Shown here one piece after another: positions 1,014 to 46,843 of a stretch of DNA of 64,000 nt (the first letter of the stretch is position 1; the number at the start of each line of letters is the position of its first letter). The stretch lies in assembly GCF_003334765.1 (NCBI RefSeq), contig NZ_QOWT01000003.1. One strand, written 5' to 3'. The notes below the pieces were generated by a model. That model was not told the origin of the DNA. It searched no databases and saw only the letters and a list, made by a program, of their open reading frames with translations. Position numbers and translations under genes: made by a program. The DNA is from Escherichia coli (GTDB taxonomy: Bacteria > Pseudomonadota > Gammaproteobacteria > Enterobacterales > Enterobacteriaceae).

Positions 1014-1784
1014 GTGAAAAGTATAGTTGACCCATCGGCATTAGTCATTGATTTAGGTGCGCAGAAACGTCCCACTGTGATTTCTGTTGTTGGTGCTGGG
1101 GGGAAAACCAGCTTGCTTTTTTGGCTGGCAGAACTGCTCCAGGCTAGCGGCAGGCGTGTGTTAATCACGACGACGACACATATGTTTATGCCAACGTCTC
1201 ACTGGCCCGTGGTTTTCTGTCGTGATCCCGCCATGCTTCCTCATGCGTCTCTTACATCCCCCATTTCATTTTGTTTTCACAGCTGGAAAGCGAACCAGGG
1301 AAAAGTGCAGGGATTTACGCCAGAAGCGATTGATGCACTGGTGCAACGACCAGAGTGTGACGTAATTCTCATTGAAGCAGATGGCTCGCGTGGAATGCCG
1401 TTAAAAGCGCCTGATGAGCACGAACCTTGCATACCCAAAAGCAGTTGCTGCGTGATTGCTGTGATGGGAGGACATACTTTGGGCGCGAAAGTGAGCACAG
1501 AAAATGTCCATCGCTGGTCGCAGTTTGCTGATATTACCGGGTTAACACCTGATGCAACCTTGCAACTGAGCGATCTCGTTGCGCTGGTTCGCCACCCTCA
1601 GGGGGCGTTTAAAAACGTACCGCAAGGTTGTCGGCGAGTCTGGTTCATTAACCGTTTTTCTCAATGTGAGAATGCGATTGCACAAAGCGAGCTCCTTCAA
1701 CCGCTGCAACAACACGACGTAGAGGCAATCTGGCTGGGCGATATACAAGAACATCCTGCAATCGCGCGCAGATTTGTGAATTAG
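1014..1784 (+). CDS. yqeC: selenium-dependent molybdenum hydroxylase system protein YqeC (P-loop protein)
   Basis: 256-aa ORF with Walker A-like motif VVGAGGKTS; synteny with yqeB/mocA as in E. coli K-12. Confidence 0.88.
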   Translation: MKSIVDPSALVIDLGAQKRPTVISVVGAGGKTSLLFWLAELLQASGRRVLITTTTHMFMPTSHWPVVFCRDPAMLPHASLTSPISFCFHSWKANQGKVQGFTPEAIDALVQRPECDVILIEADGSRGMPLKAPDEHEPCIPKSSCCVIAVMGGHTLGAKVSTENVHRWSQFADITGLTPDATLQLSDLVALVRHPQGAFKNVPQGCRRVWFINRFSQCENAIAQSELLQPLQQHDVEAIWLGDIQEHPAIARRFVN

Positions 1785-1831
1785 CGGCCCGGGTATTCCG
1801 GGTTACTGAAAGGATATCCATTGAGGTTGGT

Positions 1832-3457
1832 ATGAATATTTTCACAGAGGCTGCAAAACTCGAAGAGCAAAATTGTCCGTTTGCTATGGCGCAAATTGTT
1901 GATAGCCGAGGCTCGACTCCCCGCCATTCTGCACAAATGTTAGTGCGCGCCGATGGTTCTATCGTCGGTACAATTGGTGGCGGAATGGTTGAGCGGAAGG
2001 TGATTGAAGAGTCGCTTCAGGCATTGCAGGAACGTAAGCCGCGATTATTCCATGGACGTATGGCTCGTAACGGTGCGGATGCTGTCGGGTCAGATTGTGG
2101 AGGTGCAATGTCAGTATTTATCAGCGTCCATGGTATGCGTCCACGTCTGGTGTTGATTGGCGCGGGGCATGTCAACCGGGCGATAGCCCAGAGTGCGGCG
2201 CTATTAGGATTTGATATTGCCGTTGCTGATATTTATCGCGAAAGCCTCAATCCTGAACTATTCCCACCATCAACCACGCTTCTCCATGCTGAGTCGTTTG
2301 GTGCGGCAGTGGAAGCACTGGATATTCGCCCTGATAATTTTGTCCTGATTGCCACGAATAATCAGGATCGTGAAGCCCTCGACAAACTCATTGAACAGCC
2401 CATTGCATGGTTGGGGTTGCTGGCAAGTCGTCGCAAGGTTCAGCTTTTCCTGCGTCAATTGCGTGAGAAAGGCGTGGCTGAAGAACATATTGCCCGTTTA
2501 CATGCGCCCGTTGGTTACAACATAGGTGCGGAAACGCCGCAGGAGATCGCCATCAGCGTGCTGGCAGAAATATTACAGGTGAAAAATAACGCGCCGGGTG
2601 GGCTGATGATGAAACCTTCTCATCCTTCCGGACACCAGCTGGTGGTGATTCGCGGTGCGGGAGATATCGCCAGTGGTGTGGCGCTACGTCTGTATCATGC
2701 GGGTTTTAAAGTGATCATGCTGGAAGTGGAAAAACCGACAGTGATTCGTTGTACCGTGGCGTTTGCCCAGGCCGTGTTCGATGGCGAAATGACGGTCGAA
2801 GGCGTCACTGCTCGCCTGGCAACCAGCTCTGCGGAAGCGATGAAACTTACCGAACGCGGATTCATTCCTGTGATGGTAGATCCCGCCTGTTCATTGCTTG
2901 ATGAACTGAAACCGCTTTGCGTGGTGGACGCTATTCTGGCGAAACAGAATTTGGGAACGCGGGCAGATATGGCACCAGTAACAATCGCGCTTGGGCCGGG
3001 CTTTACTGCTGGGAAGGATTGTCATGCGGTAATTGAAACAAATCGCGGGCACTGGCTCGGTCAGGTGATTTACTCTGGTTGTGCGCAGGAGAATACCGGT
3101 GTTCCTGGCAATATTATGGGGCATACCACCCGACGGGTGATCCGTGCTCCTGCTGCAGGCATTATGCGATCCAACGTGAAATTAGGCGATCTGGTGAAAG
3201 AGGGCGATGTGATTGCCTGGATTGGTGAGCATGAAATTAAAGCACCGTTGACGGGGATGGTGCGTGGCTTGTTGAACGACGGCCTGGCAGTGGTTGGTGG
3301 TTTTAAAATTGGTGATATCGATCCTCGTGGTGAAACCGCTGATTTCACCAGCGTTTCTGATAAAGCCCGGGCGATTGGCGGCGGCGTACTTGAGGCGTTA
3401 ATGATGTTGATGCATCAGGGCGTGAAAGCGACAAAAGAAGTGCTGGAAGTGGCTTAA
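1832..3457 (+). CDS. yqeB: XdhC/CoxI-family molybdenum hydroxylase accessory protein YqeB
   Basis: 541-aa ORF, length and synteny match K-12 YqeB; tandem XdhC-like domains inferred from sequence pattern. Confidence 0.88.
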   Translation: MNIFTEAAKLEEQNCPFAMAQIVDSRGSTPRHSAQMLVRADGSIVGTIGGGMVERKVIEESLQALQERKPRLFHGRMARNGADAVGSDCGGAMSVFISVHGMRPRLVLIGAGHVNRAIAQSAALLGFDIAVADIYRESLNPELFPPSTTLLHAESFGAAVEALDIRPDNFVLIATNNQDREALDKLIEQPIAWLGLLASRRKVQLFLRQLREKGVAEEHIARLHAPVGYNIGAETPQEIAISVLAEILQVKNNAPGGLMMKPSHPSGHQLVVIRGAGDIASGVALRLYHAGFKVIMLEVEKPTVIRCTVAFAQAVFDGEMTVEGVTARLATSSAEAMKLTERGFIPVMVDPACSLLDELKPLCVVDAILAKQNLGTRADMAPVTIALGPGFTAGKDCHAVIETNRGHWLGQVIYSGCAQENTGVPGNIMGHTTRRVIRAPAAGIMRSNVKLGDLVKEGDVIAWIGEHEIKAPLTGMVRGLLNDGLAVVGGFKIGDIDPRGETADFTSVSDKARAIGGGVLEALMMLMHQGVKATKEVLEVA

Positions 3458-3464
3458 ATGAAAA

Positions 3465-3492
3465 TGGCCGGATGGTATTACCCACCCGGCCT
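3465..3492. repeat. 28-bp GC-rich hairpin repeat, copy 1 (tggccggatggtattacccacccggcct)
   Basis: Exact 28-bp direct repeat of the copy at 3645..3672; internal imperfect inverted repeat ggccggatgg/ccacccggcc; lies just after the yqeB stop. Confidence 0.7.
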
Positions 3493-3516
3493 GAGACTGA
3501 TGACAAACGCCAAATT

Positions 3517-3617
3517 GCCTGATGCGCTACGCTTATCAGGCCTACAAGTGCATTGCAATCTATTGAATTTGCTATGTTTTGTAGGACGGATAAGGCGCTC
3601 GCGCCGCATCCGGCATC
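3517..3617. repeat. REP/BIME-like element (two inverted REP palindromic units)
   Basis: gcctgatgcgctacgcttatcaggcctac and gtaggacggataaggcgctcgcgccgcatccggcatc resemble E. coli REP units in opposite orientations, between convergent yqeB and yqeA. Confidence 0.65.
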
Positions 3618-3644
3618 AACAAAGCGCACTTACTTGACAATCTT

Positions 3645-3672
3645 TGGCCGGATGGTATTACCCACCCGGCCT
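3645..3672. repeat. 28-bp GC-rich hairpin repeat, copy 2
   Basis: Identical to 3465..3492; lies just after the yqeA stop (minus strand). Confidence 0.7.
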
Positions 3673-3677
3673 TTAAA

Positions 3678-4610
3678 TTACTGACAAATCACCGTTCCTG
3701 TTTTGCCTTCAATCCCTTCTTTCGCTTTGCTCAATACGGTAATCAGTGCTTCACGACCTGCGCGAGAGCGAGCAAACGAGGCGGCAGCTTCCACTTTAGG
3801 CAGCATAGAACCTTTCGCAAAATGACCTTCTTCGATAAAGCGTTCAGCATCACTTAATGACAGGCGATCGAGCCACTGTTCATTCTCTTTACCGAAGTTA
3901 ATGGCCACTTTTTCTACCGCAGTCAGAATGATCAGCATATCGGCATCAATCATTTCTGCTAAACGGGCGCTGGCCCAGTCTTTATCGATAACCGCGCTGG
4001 CACCACGCAGATGGTTACCTTCACGAATAACAGGGATACCACCACCGCCAACGGTGATCACCACCTGACCTGCATCTACCAGAGCTTTAACCGTTTCTTT
4101 TTCAATGATATCAACCGGTTTTGGCGAGGCAACAACACGGCGATAGCCGCGACCAGCATCTTCTTTCAGAGTGTAACCCTGTTTTGTCAGTTGCTCTGCT
4201 TCTTGCTCGGTAAAGAACGAACCGATCGGCTTGGTCGGGTTGAGGAATGCCGGATCGTTAGCGTCGACTTCGACCTGAGTAACCAGCGTTGCTACAGGTT
4301 TATTAATGCCCCGAGAAAGCAGTTCTTCTCTTAAAGCGTTTTGTAGATCGTAACCAATATAACCCTGGCTTAATGCAACACAGACAGACATCGGCAGCAT
4401 TGGCGAGTGCGCTTCAGTTTTTGCGGCAGCTTCAAAGGCCTGGTTAATCATGCCCACCTGCGGCCCGTTACCATGAGTGACGATAACTTCATGTCCCTGG
4501 GCAATTAAATCAACAATTGCCTGAGAAGTAATTTTTACCGCTTTCATTTGCCCGGCCAGGTCATCGCCCAGCGCATTCCCGCCCAGGGCGAGAACAATTT
4601 TCTTACTCAT
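3678..4610 (-). CDS. yqeA: carbamate kinase-like protein YqeA
   Basis: 310-aa ORF; carbamate kinase/amino acid kinase family pattern (KIVLALGGNAL N-terminus); last gene of the ygeW-yqeA cluster. Confidence 0.9.
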   Translation of the reverse strand: MSKKIVLALGGNALGDDLAGQMKAVKITSQAIVDLIAQGHEVIVTHGNGPQVGMINQAFEAAAKTEAHSPMLPMSVCVALSQGYIGYDLQNALREELLSRGINKPVATLVTQVEVDANDPAFLNPTKPIGSFFTEQEAEQLTKQGYTLKEDAGRGYRRVVASPKPVDIIEKETVKALVDAGQVVITVGGGGIPVIREGNHLRGASAVIDKDWASARLAEMIDADMLIILTAVEKVAINFGKENEQWLDRLSLSDAERFIEEGHFAKGSMLPKVEAAASFARSRAGREALITVLSKAKEGIEGKTGTVICQ

Positions 4611-4657
4611 TTTTCCTCACTCATCATTCTTGATTGTGTATAGATCCCTGGCAGTGG

Positions 4658-17013: not shown

Positions 17014-17087
17014 GCGGGCGTAGTTCAATGGTAGAACGAGAGCTTCCCAAGCTCTATACGAGGGTTCGATTCCCTTCGCCCGCTCCA
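17014..17087 (+). tRNA. glyU: tRNA-Gly (anticodon CCC)
   Basis: 74-nt sequence GCGGGCGTAGTTCAATGGTAGAACGAGAGCTTCCCAAGCTC...CGCCCGCTCCA with 7-bp acceptor stem, CCC anticodon in loop CUUCCCAAG, T-loop GGTTCGATTCC, encoded CCA end. Confidence 0.95.
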
Positions 17088-17200
17088 ATTTATCTTCGCC
17101 GTAATACTTCCCCATTTTGTTGTAAATAAAAAGCGTTTACGCAATGCAATCCTTTTGTAACAACCCAGGTAAAACACCTTATTTTCAAGTTGTTAAATAA

Positions 17201-18853
17201 GTGGTTATCTACGCTTTTAACAAACGATTGATGGAATATTTTATGAAAGGGAAATCTGCATTAACTCTTCTGCTCGCTGGTATATTTTCGTGCGGCACAT
17301 GCCAGGCGACAGGGGCAGAAGTGACGAGTGAATCTGTATTTAACATTCTTAATTCCACGGGGGCAGCAACAGATAAAAGTTATTTATCGTTAAATCCAGA
17401 TAAGTATCCTAATTATCGTCTTCTGATTCACTCAGCCAAATTACAAAATGAAATAAAGAGCCACTATACCAAAGACGAAATTCAAGGATTGCTAACATTA
17501 ACAGAAAACACACGAAAGTTAACGTTGACGGAGAAACCCTGGGGAACGTTTATTCTTGCTTCTACTTTCGAAGATGACAAAACAGCGGCAGAAACCCACT
17601 ATGATGCTGTCTGGTTGAGGGATAGTTTATGGGGCTATATGGCATTAGTATCAGATCAGGGAAATAGTGTAGCCGCAAAAAAGGTTCTGCTCACCCTGTG
17701 GGATTATATGTCTACGCCCGACCAGATTAAGCGGATGCAGGACGTCATTAGCAACCCAAAACGACTGGATGGAATTCCCGTGCAAATGAATGCTGTGCAT
17801 ATCCGATTTGACAGCAACTCCCCCGTGATGGCAGATGTGCAGGAAGAAGGCAAGCCGCAGCTGTGGAACCATAAACAAAATGATGCTTTAGGTCTTTACC
17901 TTGATCTCCTTATACAAGCAATCAACACTGGTACTATTAACGCTGAAGATTGGCAAAAAGGTGACCGATTAAAGTCGGTTGCGCTGCTGATTGCTTATCT
18001 GGATAAAGCCAATTTCTATGTTATGGAAGATTCCTGAGCATGGGAAGAAGATGCCCGATTAAACACATCTTCCGTTGCACTGGTGACCTCTGGACTGGAA
18101 CGTTTGTCAAACCTACTCTCGAAGAAAGACTCTGTTTTTGTCTCTGATTTACTACGCGAAGCTAAAGTCAATGAACTGGATGAAACTCTTTCAACAACGA
18201 GGTTGAACCACCTCATAGATAAAGGTTATGAAAGAATAACGTTACAGCTTGATTTAGGGGGAGAATCCCCAGGTTATCTGGAAAAAGATAAACATTACAG
18301 AGAAGCCGATGCGGCTTTACTTAATGTTATTTATCCTACAAATCTTTCAAAGATAAACACCAGAAGAAAAGAGCAAGTTCTAAAAATAGTTAAAAAACTA
18401 GCAGGTCCGTATGGTATAAAAAGATACGAGAAGGATAATTATCAGTCGGCAAATTTTTGGTTCAATGATATTAAAACCGATACCGATCAAAATTCGCATG
18501 CAAAAAGAGAAAAGAGCTTCATTCCATCAACAGAAGCAGAATGGTTTTTTGACTCATGGTATGCAAAATCAGCAGCAATTGTTTATAAAGAATCAAGAAA
18601 AGAAGAGTATTTGAATGACTCAGTACAATTTATGAATAGATCATTGGCCCAAATAACAGGCGAGAATATGATTGGTGCAAATGGCAGGAGCGTACCAGAA
18701 ATGGCACTTCCCGAAAGCTATAACTATATCCACAAGTCGGGAACTTTGCATGAAGCGCCAAGCCCTATCATTCCGCTAAATTGGTCGAAAGCTTCAATGA
18801 CTCTCATGTTGAAAGAGATGTCCAACCTTATCAATGATGAGGGAATTAAATAG
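17201..18853 (+). pseudogene. ygeQ: glycoside hydrolase family 15-like lipoprotein, interrupted by in-frame TGA (ygeQ-like)
   Basis: Two ORFs (17201..18037, 18083..18853) in the same frame separated by a single TGA at 18035..18037; GH15-like WEE...NTSS motif immediately after the stop; N-terminal signal/lipobox-like segment. Confidence 0.75.
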
Positions 18854-18984
18854 TTTTCATAATGAGTTACAGCACAACGTTGGGTATTGACTGAGCAAGA
18901 TGAACGACAAGGACAACGACATCAGCCTTATGAGGAGCAAGAAAATGAAAGCAAATTCGAAAACGATCAGAAGGATGAAAGTTA

Positions 18985-19932
18985 ATGTTCGGTCTGAGGA
19001 CAGTAAATCGAAACACTCATACGTTTGAAACCACTTTTCAAAATTGGAAAGAAAATGGCGAAGATGTTGCATTATTAATGCCCGAATTTAGTGCTAAATG
19101 GCTACCGATAGCAGAAGAGAGTGGCAGCTGGTCTGGATGGGTATTGCTTGGAGAAATATTTCCCTTAATTTCATCTGAGCTCGCTGGGATGGCTTTAATG
19201 CCAGAAACGGAAAGGTTAATAGGGGAATGCCTCAGTTTATCCAGTTCCCCGTTAAATCTAAAGCATCCTGAACTAAAATATAATCGTTTGCGCGTAGGTA
19301 AAGTATTTGATGGAGTATTGAGCCCTGCTCAACCACTAATAAGAATATGGACAGGGGAATTGAATCTTTGGTTAGATAAAGTCACAGTCTGCCAATACGG
19401 AAACGCTCCAGCGTTAGACAAAAAATCGTTATATTGCTCCATTCATTTTGTAATTGGATTTAGTAAAACATGTTACAGAAGTCTTGTTGATATTGAAGTT
19501 GGTGATGTTTTATTAATCTCAAATAATTTGGCTTATGCGGTTGTTTATAATACAAAAATTTGTGATTTAATTTATCCAGAGGAGTTAAAAATGGCTGATC
19601 ATTTTGAGTACGAGGAAGATTTTGAAACAGATGATTTTGATATCAAAAAAAACGAGAGTGAGATTTATGATGAAAATGACGATCAGATGATTAATAGTTT
19701 TGAAGACTTGCCTGTAAAAATTGAGTTTGTTCTTGGTAAGAAAATAATGAATCTATATGAAATAGACGAACTCTGTGCAAAAAGAATAATATCTCTGCTT
19801 TCTGAATCTGAGAAAAATATAGAAATACGTGTAAATGGCGCGCTAACTGGCTATGGCGAACTTGTTGAAGTGGATGATAAATTGGGCGTAGAGATTCATT
19901 CTTGGTTATCAGGGCATAATAATGTCAAATAG
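18985..19932 (+). CDS. epaO: T3SS cytoplasmic sorting platform/C-ring protein (SctQ; SpaO/YscQ family)
   Basis: 315 aa; C-terminal SpoA-like region (VKIEFVLGKK...EIRVNGALTGYGELVEVDDKLGVEI); acidic linker; immediately precedes the sctRSTU homologs. Confidence 0.8.
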   Translation: MFGLRTVNRNTHTFETTFQNWKENGEDVALLMPEFSAKWLPIAEESGSWSGWVLLGEIFPLISSELAGMALMPETERLIGECLSLSSSPLNLKHPELKYNRLRVGKVFDGVLSPAQPLIRIWTGELNLWLDKVTVCQYGNAPALDKKSLYCSIHFVIGFSKTCYRSLVDIEVGDVLLISNNLAYAVVYNTKICDLIYPEELKMADHFEYEEDFETDDFDIKKNESEIYDENDDQMINSFEDLPVKIEFVLGKKIMNLYEIDELCAKRIISLLSESEKNIEIRVNGALTGYGELVEVDDKLGVEIHSWLSGHNNVK

Positions 19933-46559: not shown

Positions 46560-46641
46560 CCCAGAGGTATTGATAGGTGAAGTCAACTTCGGGTTGAGCA
46601 CATGAATTACACCAGCCTGCGCAGATGCGCAGGTTTTTTTT
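46560..46641 (+). ncRNA. omrB: small regulatory RNA OmrB (RygB)
   Basis: 82-nt unit from CCCAGAGGTATTGAT to the terminator hairpin cctgcgcagatgcgcagg plus T8; shares 5' and 3' ends with the adjacent copy; galR-aas intergenic location. Confidence 0.88.
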
Positions 46642-46755: not shown

Positions 46756-46843
46756 CCCAGAGGTATTGATTGGTGAGATTATTCGGTACGCTCTTCGTAC
46801 CCTGTCTCTTGCACCAACCTGCGCGGATGCGCAGGTTTTTTTT
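46756..46843 (+). ncRNA. omrA: small regulatory RNA OmrA (RygA)
   Basis: 88-nt unit with the same conserved 5' end and terminator hairpin cctgcgcggatgcgcagg plus T8; tandem with omrB. Confidence 0.88.

Follow-up and report, generated by a model that had tools for sequence, protein, structure and literature searches.

The ETT2 island of E. coli lies beside glyU, a tRNA-Gly gene (PMC3977695). In the ETT2 literature the gene considered here is named pkgA, for 'phosphorylase kinase and glucoamylase', and in O157 Sakai it is split into ECs3736 (=B2863) and ECs3737 (=B2862); the same review attributes the description of 'widespread mutational attrition' of ETT2 to Ren et al. 2004 (PMC3977695). In the MG1655 record (NC_000913.3), ygeQ (b2863) is kept as a CDS for a 264-aa 'putative lipoprotein YgeQ', and ygeP (b2862) is a pseudogene cut by IS2H. 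The broken state of ygeQ is therefore already known, both from the K-12 annotation and from the ETT2 literature under the name pkgA. For the enzyme family to which the gene is related, glycoside hydrolase family 15 (GH15), an (alpha/alpha)6 barrel has been described, with the general acid in the loop from alpha5 to alpha6 and the general base in the loop from alpha11 to alpha12 (PMC12446779).

We analysed a 64-kb stretch of E. coli DNA (the window) that carries this locus. The glyU gene, tRNA-Gly(CCC), is at 17014..17087 on the plus strand and serves as the chromosomal landmark of the ETT2 island; ygeQ/pkgA is the first gene after it. The K-12 ygeQ/ygeP locus has the same position directly after glyU at the ETT2 edge, the same TGA and a sequence identical to the window across the site. 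In the window the 3' part of ygeQ is complete and ends at the natural stop at 18853; in K-12 the part beyond window position ~18379 has been lost to IS2H. The Sakai-type pkgA is split by a frameshift, unlike the TGA of the window and K-12. Together the results lead us to conclude, with a probability of about 95%, that ygeQ/pkgA is one GH15-like gene inactivated by a single, lineage-specific nonsense mutation that changed GGA (Gly265) to TGA.

Translation of 17201-18856 in one frame showed that the TGA at 18035-18037 is the sole internal stop of a 1611-nt frame at 17243-18853 on the plus strand, in agreement with the first-pass annotation, which had described two ORFs in one frame parted only by this codon. 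Read through, the frame gives ...YVMEDS*AWEEDARLNTSS... and then stays open to the natural stop at 18851-18853. Within 17243-18853 the coding frame holds only the internal TGA and the terminal stop, and the other two frames hold 36 and 43 stops. The N-terminal fragment (17243..18037, plus strand; 264 codons plus TGA) is the equivalent of K-12 ygeQ b2863, as judged from the ORF list, the translation and the RefSeq annotation of an identical locus and of MG1655. This fragment carries a signal/lipobox-like N-terminus and the first part of a GH15-like barrel. The in-frame C-terminal remainder (18038..18853, plus strand) corresponds, by RefSeq annotation and homolog alignment, to the K-12 pseudogene ygeP b2862. 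The downstream piece had been called a second ygeQ ORF; its K-12 name is ygeP, and the whole gene is pkgA. Part of this remainder, 18104-18853 (TTG start, 249 aa), is annotated by PGAP as a 'hypothetical protein'. The product of the intact ygeQ/pkgA allele, of which WP_000676929.1 is an example, is 536 aa in length; the intact protein compared with the PDB below was that of locus L002 (1594-3201).

The premature TGA occupies codon 265 (18035..18037, plus strand), which alignment shows to be GGA (Gly265) in intact alleles, and the change from GGA is a G>T transversion at 18035. The sense codon was thus one of those named beforehand in the first-pass annotation, and it lies one substitution away from TGA. 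Alignment placed GGA at codon 265 in four E. coli alleles (L002, L005, L006 and L007) and also in the frameshifted O157:H7 allele (L003), and in an alignment of the site the window, strain LR-64-2 and a K-12 derivative had TGA where intact strains had GGA. Outside E. coli the equivalent codon is GGT or GGG, with GGT in E. albertii, GGG in Yersinia and, again, GGT/GGG in Commensalibacter. When the window ygeQ was compared codon by codon with two intact alleles, both were 1611 nt long with zero indels and 26 or 16 substitutions, and TGA/GGA at codon 265 was the sole difference that created a stop.

A megablast search with 17150-18900 as the query against 5426 complete E. coli genomes found the region in 4035. 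Among the matches listed, a split annotation, 'protein YgeQ' plus 'hypothetical protein', goes with alleles that share 99.9-100% identity with the window, and full-length ygeQ alleles at 99.5% identity or less bear a single annotation, 'glycoside hydrolase family 15 protein'; also among the matches listed, TGA occurs only on the alleles 99.9-100% identical to the window. Counts of 61-mers centred on codon 265 gave an exact TGA match in 945 and an exact GGA match in 1656 of the 3466 complete E. coli genomes holding the segment, with about 865 genomes differing at neighbouring SNPs and thereby falling outside both counts. The genomes with the exact TGA 61-mer include the K-12 derivatives XL1-Blue and MC4100. 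Since this TGA 61-mer recurs in hundreds of independent assemblies (945 complete genomes assembled independently), a sequencing error, which the first-pass annotation had wished to exclude, is ruled out as the source of the TGA. No stop at codon 265 was found in the other lineages and species examined (E. coli GGA alleles, E. albertii, Yersinia and 23 homologs), and the stop is restricted to one lineage both among the matches listed and in the 61-mer counts. From haplotype identity among the matches listed we infer a single origin: the TGA would have arisen once, on the haplotype common to K-12 and its relatives, and would have spread clonally since.

The spacer between glyU and ygeQ (17088..17242, plus strand) carries a 78-nt deletion with its junction at about 17097/17098, as seen in an alignment to four GGA-bearing E. 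coli alleles. The 78 nt are missing from both TGA alleles compared, those of the window and K-12, and the sequence is present in all four of the GGA-bearing alleles examined. The deletion accompanies the TGA as a second, linked change on this haplotype. It lies about 145 nt upstream of the ygeQ ATG and could affect the promoter.

In a large protein collection the intact 536-aa protein had 252 homologs at E <= 1e-5, in hosts that include E. albertii (76% identity), Yersinia enterocolitica (60%), Commensalibacter, Bifidobacterium, Elusimicrobiota, Bdellovibrionales and others. For alignment we used 23 of the 252 sequences, spanning 37-76% identity. Every one of the 23 is a single protein of about 490-610 aa that covers both ygeQ halves, so that the two fragments of the 1611-nt frame are collinear with single full-length proteins. 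Gly265, Trp267, Glu268, Glu269, Asn274, Ser276, Ser277 and P490-E491-S492 are invariant in all 23. In the window, W267-E268-E269 is encoded at 18041-18049 and P490-E491-S492 at 18710-18718, both within the ygeQ 3' remainder. The first-pass annotation had predicted that the halves would align to one GH15-family protein, and this was borne out: both match single GH15-like proteins in many taxa, and no ortholog starts or stops at the site.

The relation to GH15 is distant. The Pfam family PF00723 (Glyco_hydro_15) matched residues 94-401 weakly (i-Evalue 2.2e-4, 20.7 bits), and an NCBIfam scan of the intact protein gave only a far sub-threshold match to TIGR01577. Searches of PDB sequences returned matches only to the GH15-like domains of phosphorylase kinase (PhK) alpha and beta, in which D-x-G-x-W-E was aligned, including the mutated Gly; canonical glucoamylases were absent from both the profile and the single-sequence searches of PDB sequences, even at E <= 10. 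From the 23-sequence alignment, AlphaFold2 modelled the intact protein as an (alpha/alpha)6 barrel (pLDDT 87.1, pTM 0.88). With this model the top Foldseek matches in the PDB were PhK beta, the GH15 glycosidase 5z3c, fungal and bacterial glucoamylases and dextran dextrinase, all with probability 1.00; the entries at this probability include 5z3c (TM 0.70 on the target), 1ayx, 1lf6, 1gah and 9ju0. The Foldseek list also has entries related to 5z3c whose labels describe them as E178A and E335A mutants.

The model places WEE in an inter-helix loop (residues 256-274, flanked by helices 242-255 and 275-292). E491 falls in another such loop, after helix 454-469 and before helix 513-532, the latter being the last helix in our own count. 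The positions of E268/E269 and of E491 are, at the level of motif and loop, consistent with the roles of the GH15 general acid and general base, respectively. The intact protein resembles the GH15 enzymes (glucoamylase, glucodextranase, trehalase, isomaltose glucohydrolase and dextran dextrinase) in its predicted (alpha/alpha)6-barrel fold and its weak PF00723 match, and similarly in the invariant W-E-E in a loop that precedes a barrel helix and the invariant E491 in the loop that precedes the last helix. It is unlike them in that the relation is very distant, with a Pfam E of 2.2e-4 and 10-17% identity to solved GH15 enzymes. It also presumably lacks the N-terminal beta-sandwich domain that we take to be typical of bacterial glucoamylases.

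The nearest solved relatives are the GH15-like N-terminal domains of PhK alpha and beta (PDB 8jfk), at E = 1.2e-7 with the family profile and E = 1.4e-9 in Foldseek. These domains are eukaryotic, cytosolic and regulatory and form part of proteins of more than 1000 aa, whereas YgeQ is predicted to be exported and stands alone; their motif is W-E-R or W-E-R-G, compared with W-E-E in YgeQ. Based on sequence and model, intact YgeQ/PkgA appears to be a member of a divergent, phosphorylase-kinase-like branch of GH15 and not a typical glucoamylase. The GH15 resemblance proposed in the first-pass annotation therefore holds, through the predicted fold and a weak PF00723 match, but the implied likeness to an ordinary glucoamylase does not. 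That PhK alpha and beta domains outrank canonical glucoamylases as solved relatives of an exported bacterial protein, by sequence and by fold, is an observation in its own right.

Full-length pkgA homologs in Yersinia enterocolitica (3001-4581 of locus L010) and Commensalibacter (3001-4641 of locus L011) lie in neighbourhoods without type III secretion genes, and the Commensalibacter homolog adjoins an EamA transporter and a GH32 glycosidase. Because pkgA homologs occur in such contexts, pkgA is not intrinsically a component of a type III secretion system. The family may act on carbohydrates. Among the full texts that mention ygeQ, no functional or biochemical study was found, nor was a characterised member of the family.

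Taken together, these results suggest how the mutation would abolish function. The intact gene would encode an exported, probably lipid-anchored, GH15-like (alpha/alpha)6-barrel protein of 536 aa. With TGA in place of GGA at codon 265, translation would end at 18037 and yield a 264-aa fragment. This fragment would stop three residues before the presumed general-acid glutamate in W267-E268-E269 and would be without the barrel's second half, in which the presumed general base Glu491 lies. The invariant W267-E268-E269 and E491 are both lost from the 264-residue fragment, and their catalytic role is presumed from motif and model. Since the presumed acid, the presumed base and half of the barrel would be missing, truncated YgeQ is not expected to be an active glycosidase. 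We found no evidence that contradicts the nonsense-mutation reading among the results presented here.

Downstream of the TGA, a scan of the sequence located a 7-bp inverted repeat, GAAGATG / CATCTTC, with a 12-nt loop (18047..18072, plus strand). The first-pass annotation had noted this repeat and placed it six nucleotides past the stop; the repeat is present, but the spacing is different. The perfect arms are at 18047-18053 and 18066-18072, the first of them 9 nt past the TGA, and the RNAfold minimum-energy structure instead pairs GGAAGA with UCUUCC, in a shifted register beginning 5 nt past the TGA. The minimum free energy of a 61-nt segment was -12.5 kcal/mol, compared with -12.3 +/- 2.6 for dinucleotide shuffles (z = -0.08), and 85 of 200 shuffles were at least as stable. 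The 64-kb window contains 141 perfect 7-bp inverted repeats with loops of 3-15 nt, and 2.9% of positions have one beginning within the next 21 nt. The arms are formed by the codons of Glu269-Asp270-(Ala271), GAA-GAT-G, and of (Thr275)-Ser276-Ser277, (A)CA-TCT-TC, so that conserved amino acids fix five of the seven pairs and wobble positions set the other two. GGA alleles have the identical hairpin. E. albertii and Yersinia each retain 6/7 pairs, having lost one at a wobble position, and in Commensalibacter (L011) the pairs are kept through a G-U pair and a GAC/ACG change. In this last case the third bases of the Asp codon (GAT>GAC) and of the Thr codon (ACA>ACG) have both changed and preserve one hairpin pair, which, as a single case at two synonymous sites, we judge to be chance. 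With four lineages and two free positions, there is therefore no evidence of selection on the hairpin structure. The hairpin is a by-product of the conserved E-D...T-S-S codons and not a recoding signal, and it plays no part in the inactivation of ygeQ. As a recoding stimulator it was rejected on its stability relative to shuffled sequence, its identity in GGA alleles and its origin in the Glu-Asp and Thr-Ser-Ser codons.

Several other explanations for the in-frame TGA were weighed against a nonsense mutation. The first-pass annotation had offered programmed read-through as its less likely option: the UGA at 18035 would be decoded at a useful frequency, stimulated by the hairpin, to make a full-length GH15-like protein beside the short form. 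Points in favour of such a reading are that no stop codon of E. coli is leakier than UGA and that the RF2 variant of K-12 is a weak one, together with the hairpin that begins 5-9 nt downstream of an in-frame UGA and the frame past the TGA that is still intact in the window. However, the hairpin is no stabler than shuffled sequence, occurs unchanged in alleles that have no stop to read through, owes five of its seven pairs to conserved amino acids, and does not keep both of its wobble-determined pairs in E. albertii or Yersinia. Near-cognate read-through of UGA inserts Trp, which would here replace a Gly that is invariant across the family. Furthermore, only one near-identical haplotype carries the TGA among the matches listed. 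IS2H later removed the 3' end of the gene from K-12, and the lesions of other lineages are of other kinds, so that selection is not maintaining the region past the TGA. We consider programmed read-through highly improbable. Insertion of selenocysteine at the UGA, directed by a bacterial SECIS hairpin immediately downstream, would also account for the stem-loop that closely follows, and the site does resemble bacterial selenocysteine insertion sites such as fdhF in having a UGA with a stem-loop within about 10 nt. The xdhA gene lies about 1.5 kb upstream, in an xdh/ygf region that we take to be selenium-linked. Unlike fdhF-type sites, ygeQ has no SECIS-like structure, no Cys or Sec in its relatives and a TGA that is lineage-specific. 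An Rfam scan of 17800-18300, SECIS models included, gave zero matches at E <= 10, and neither the hairpin loop CCCGAUUAAACA nor its stem resembles what we take to be the apical loop of an E. coli fdhF-type SECIS. The homologous position is Gly in 23 of 23 homologs, never Cys or Sec, and the TGA arose from GGA recently, within E. coli. Selenocysteine was rejected on these grounds, and its likelihood is close to nil. Read-through and selenocysteine insertion alike predict a stop and a structure that are conserved beyond coding needs, and selenocysteine further predicts Cys in relatives; none of these predictions holds, and both readings are therefore disfavoured.

It could also be argued that the TGA is a genuine gene end, such that the 264-aa YgeQ lipoprotein and the 249-aa ORF starting at TTG 18104 are independently functional genes, as PGAP annotates them. 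Both are CDS features in RefSeq, MG1655 retains ygeQ as a CDS under the name 'putative lipoprotein YgeQ', and the split allele is common, being found in at least 945 genomes. Against this, homologs outside the TGA haplotype are all single proteins that run across both parts, and not one of them starts or stops at the split point, which falls inside the barrel, in an inter-helix loop immediately before the invariant WEE. The downstream starts are GTG or TTG, with a weak GGA(A) upstream of TTG 18104, and K-12 is without most of the downstream piece, which its own record calls a pseudogene. Two independent genes are accordingly very unlikely. Finally, there is a slim chance that the TGA allele is not dead, either because the 264-aa lipoprotein has taken on a new, non-enzymatic role or because leaky decoding of the UGA, in K-12-like strains whose RF2 variant is weak, yields a little G265W full-length protein that still matters. 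If this were so, the frequency of the allele, at least 945 of 3466 genomes, would reflect selection rather than clonal hitch-hiking.

We thus favour a nonsense mutation in a decaying island gene, as the first-pass annotation had thought likeliest: intact alleles carry GGA, homologs are single proteins, and independent lesions occur elsewhere. These lesions include a frameshift in pkgA of O157:H7 ATCC 35150 (1594-3199 of locus L003), an IS3-family insertion in strain PRO_A-1412-6M-A (3022-4250 of locus L006), the IS2H truncation in K-12 (2822-4050 of locus L004) and IS421 insertions in ECO12, EC2 and 25403 (H1/H3/H4). With this nonsense mutation, the documented record of mutational attrition in ETT2 gains one precisely defined lesion. 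Its importance lies mainly in annotation, as this is an ordinary broken gene and not a programmed recoding site. The 'protein YgeQ' and the adjacent 'hypothetical protein' of K-12-like RefSeq genomes are the halves of one pkgA and should be given one pseudogene annotation. The intact gene may be of modest interest, as it represents a widespread exported bacterial family whose nearest solved relatives are the PhK alpha and beta GH15-like domains.

The GC content of ygeQ is 40%, that of the downstream ETT2 genes 35%, and that of the core genes actS and xdhA 51-53%. Homology of the window to the ETT2 arrangement of O157/E. albertii-type strains stops at about 18866, 13 nt past the ygeQ stop. In those strains ygeQ is followed by a GhoT/OrtT-family toxin gene, an AraC-type regulator (eivF) and sctC; in the window, about 18866-19932 holds a 3' fragment of a SpaN/EivJ needle-length gene and then a YscQ/HrcQ gene, which RefSeq marks as frameshifted in a strain identical to the window. 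The window past 18866 therefore appears, on sequence comparison, to amount to an internal ETT2 deletion plus further pseudogenes. Elsewhere in the window, tandem OmrA/OmrB sRNA genes were identified at 46560-46641 and 46756-46843 on the plus strand (Rfam RF00079, 86 and 97 bits), as expected for the region.
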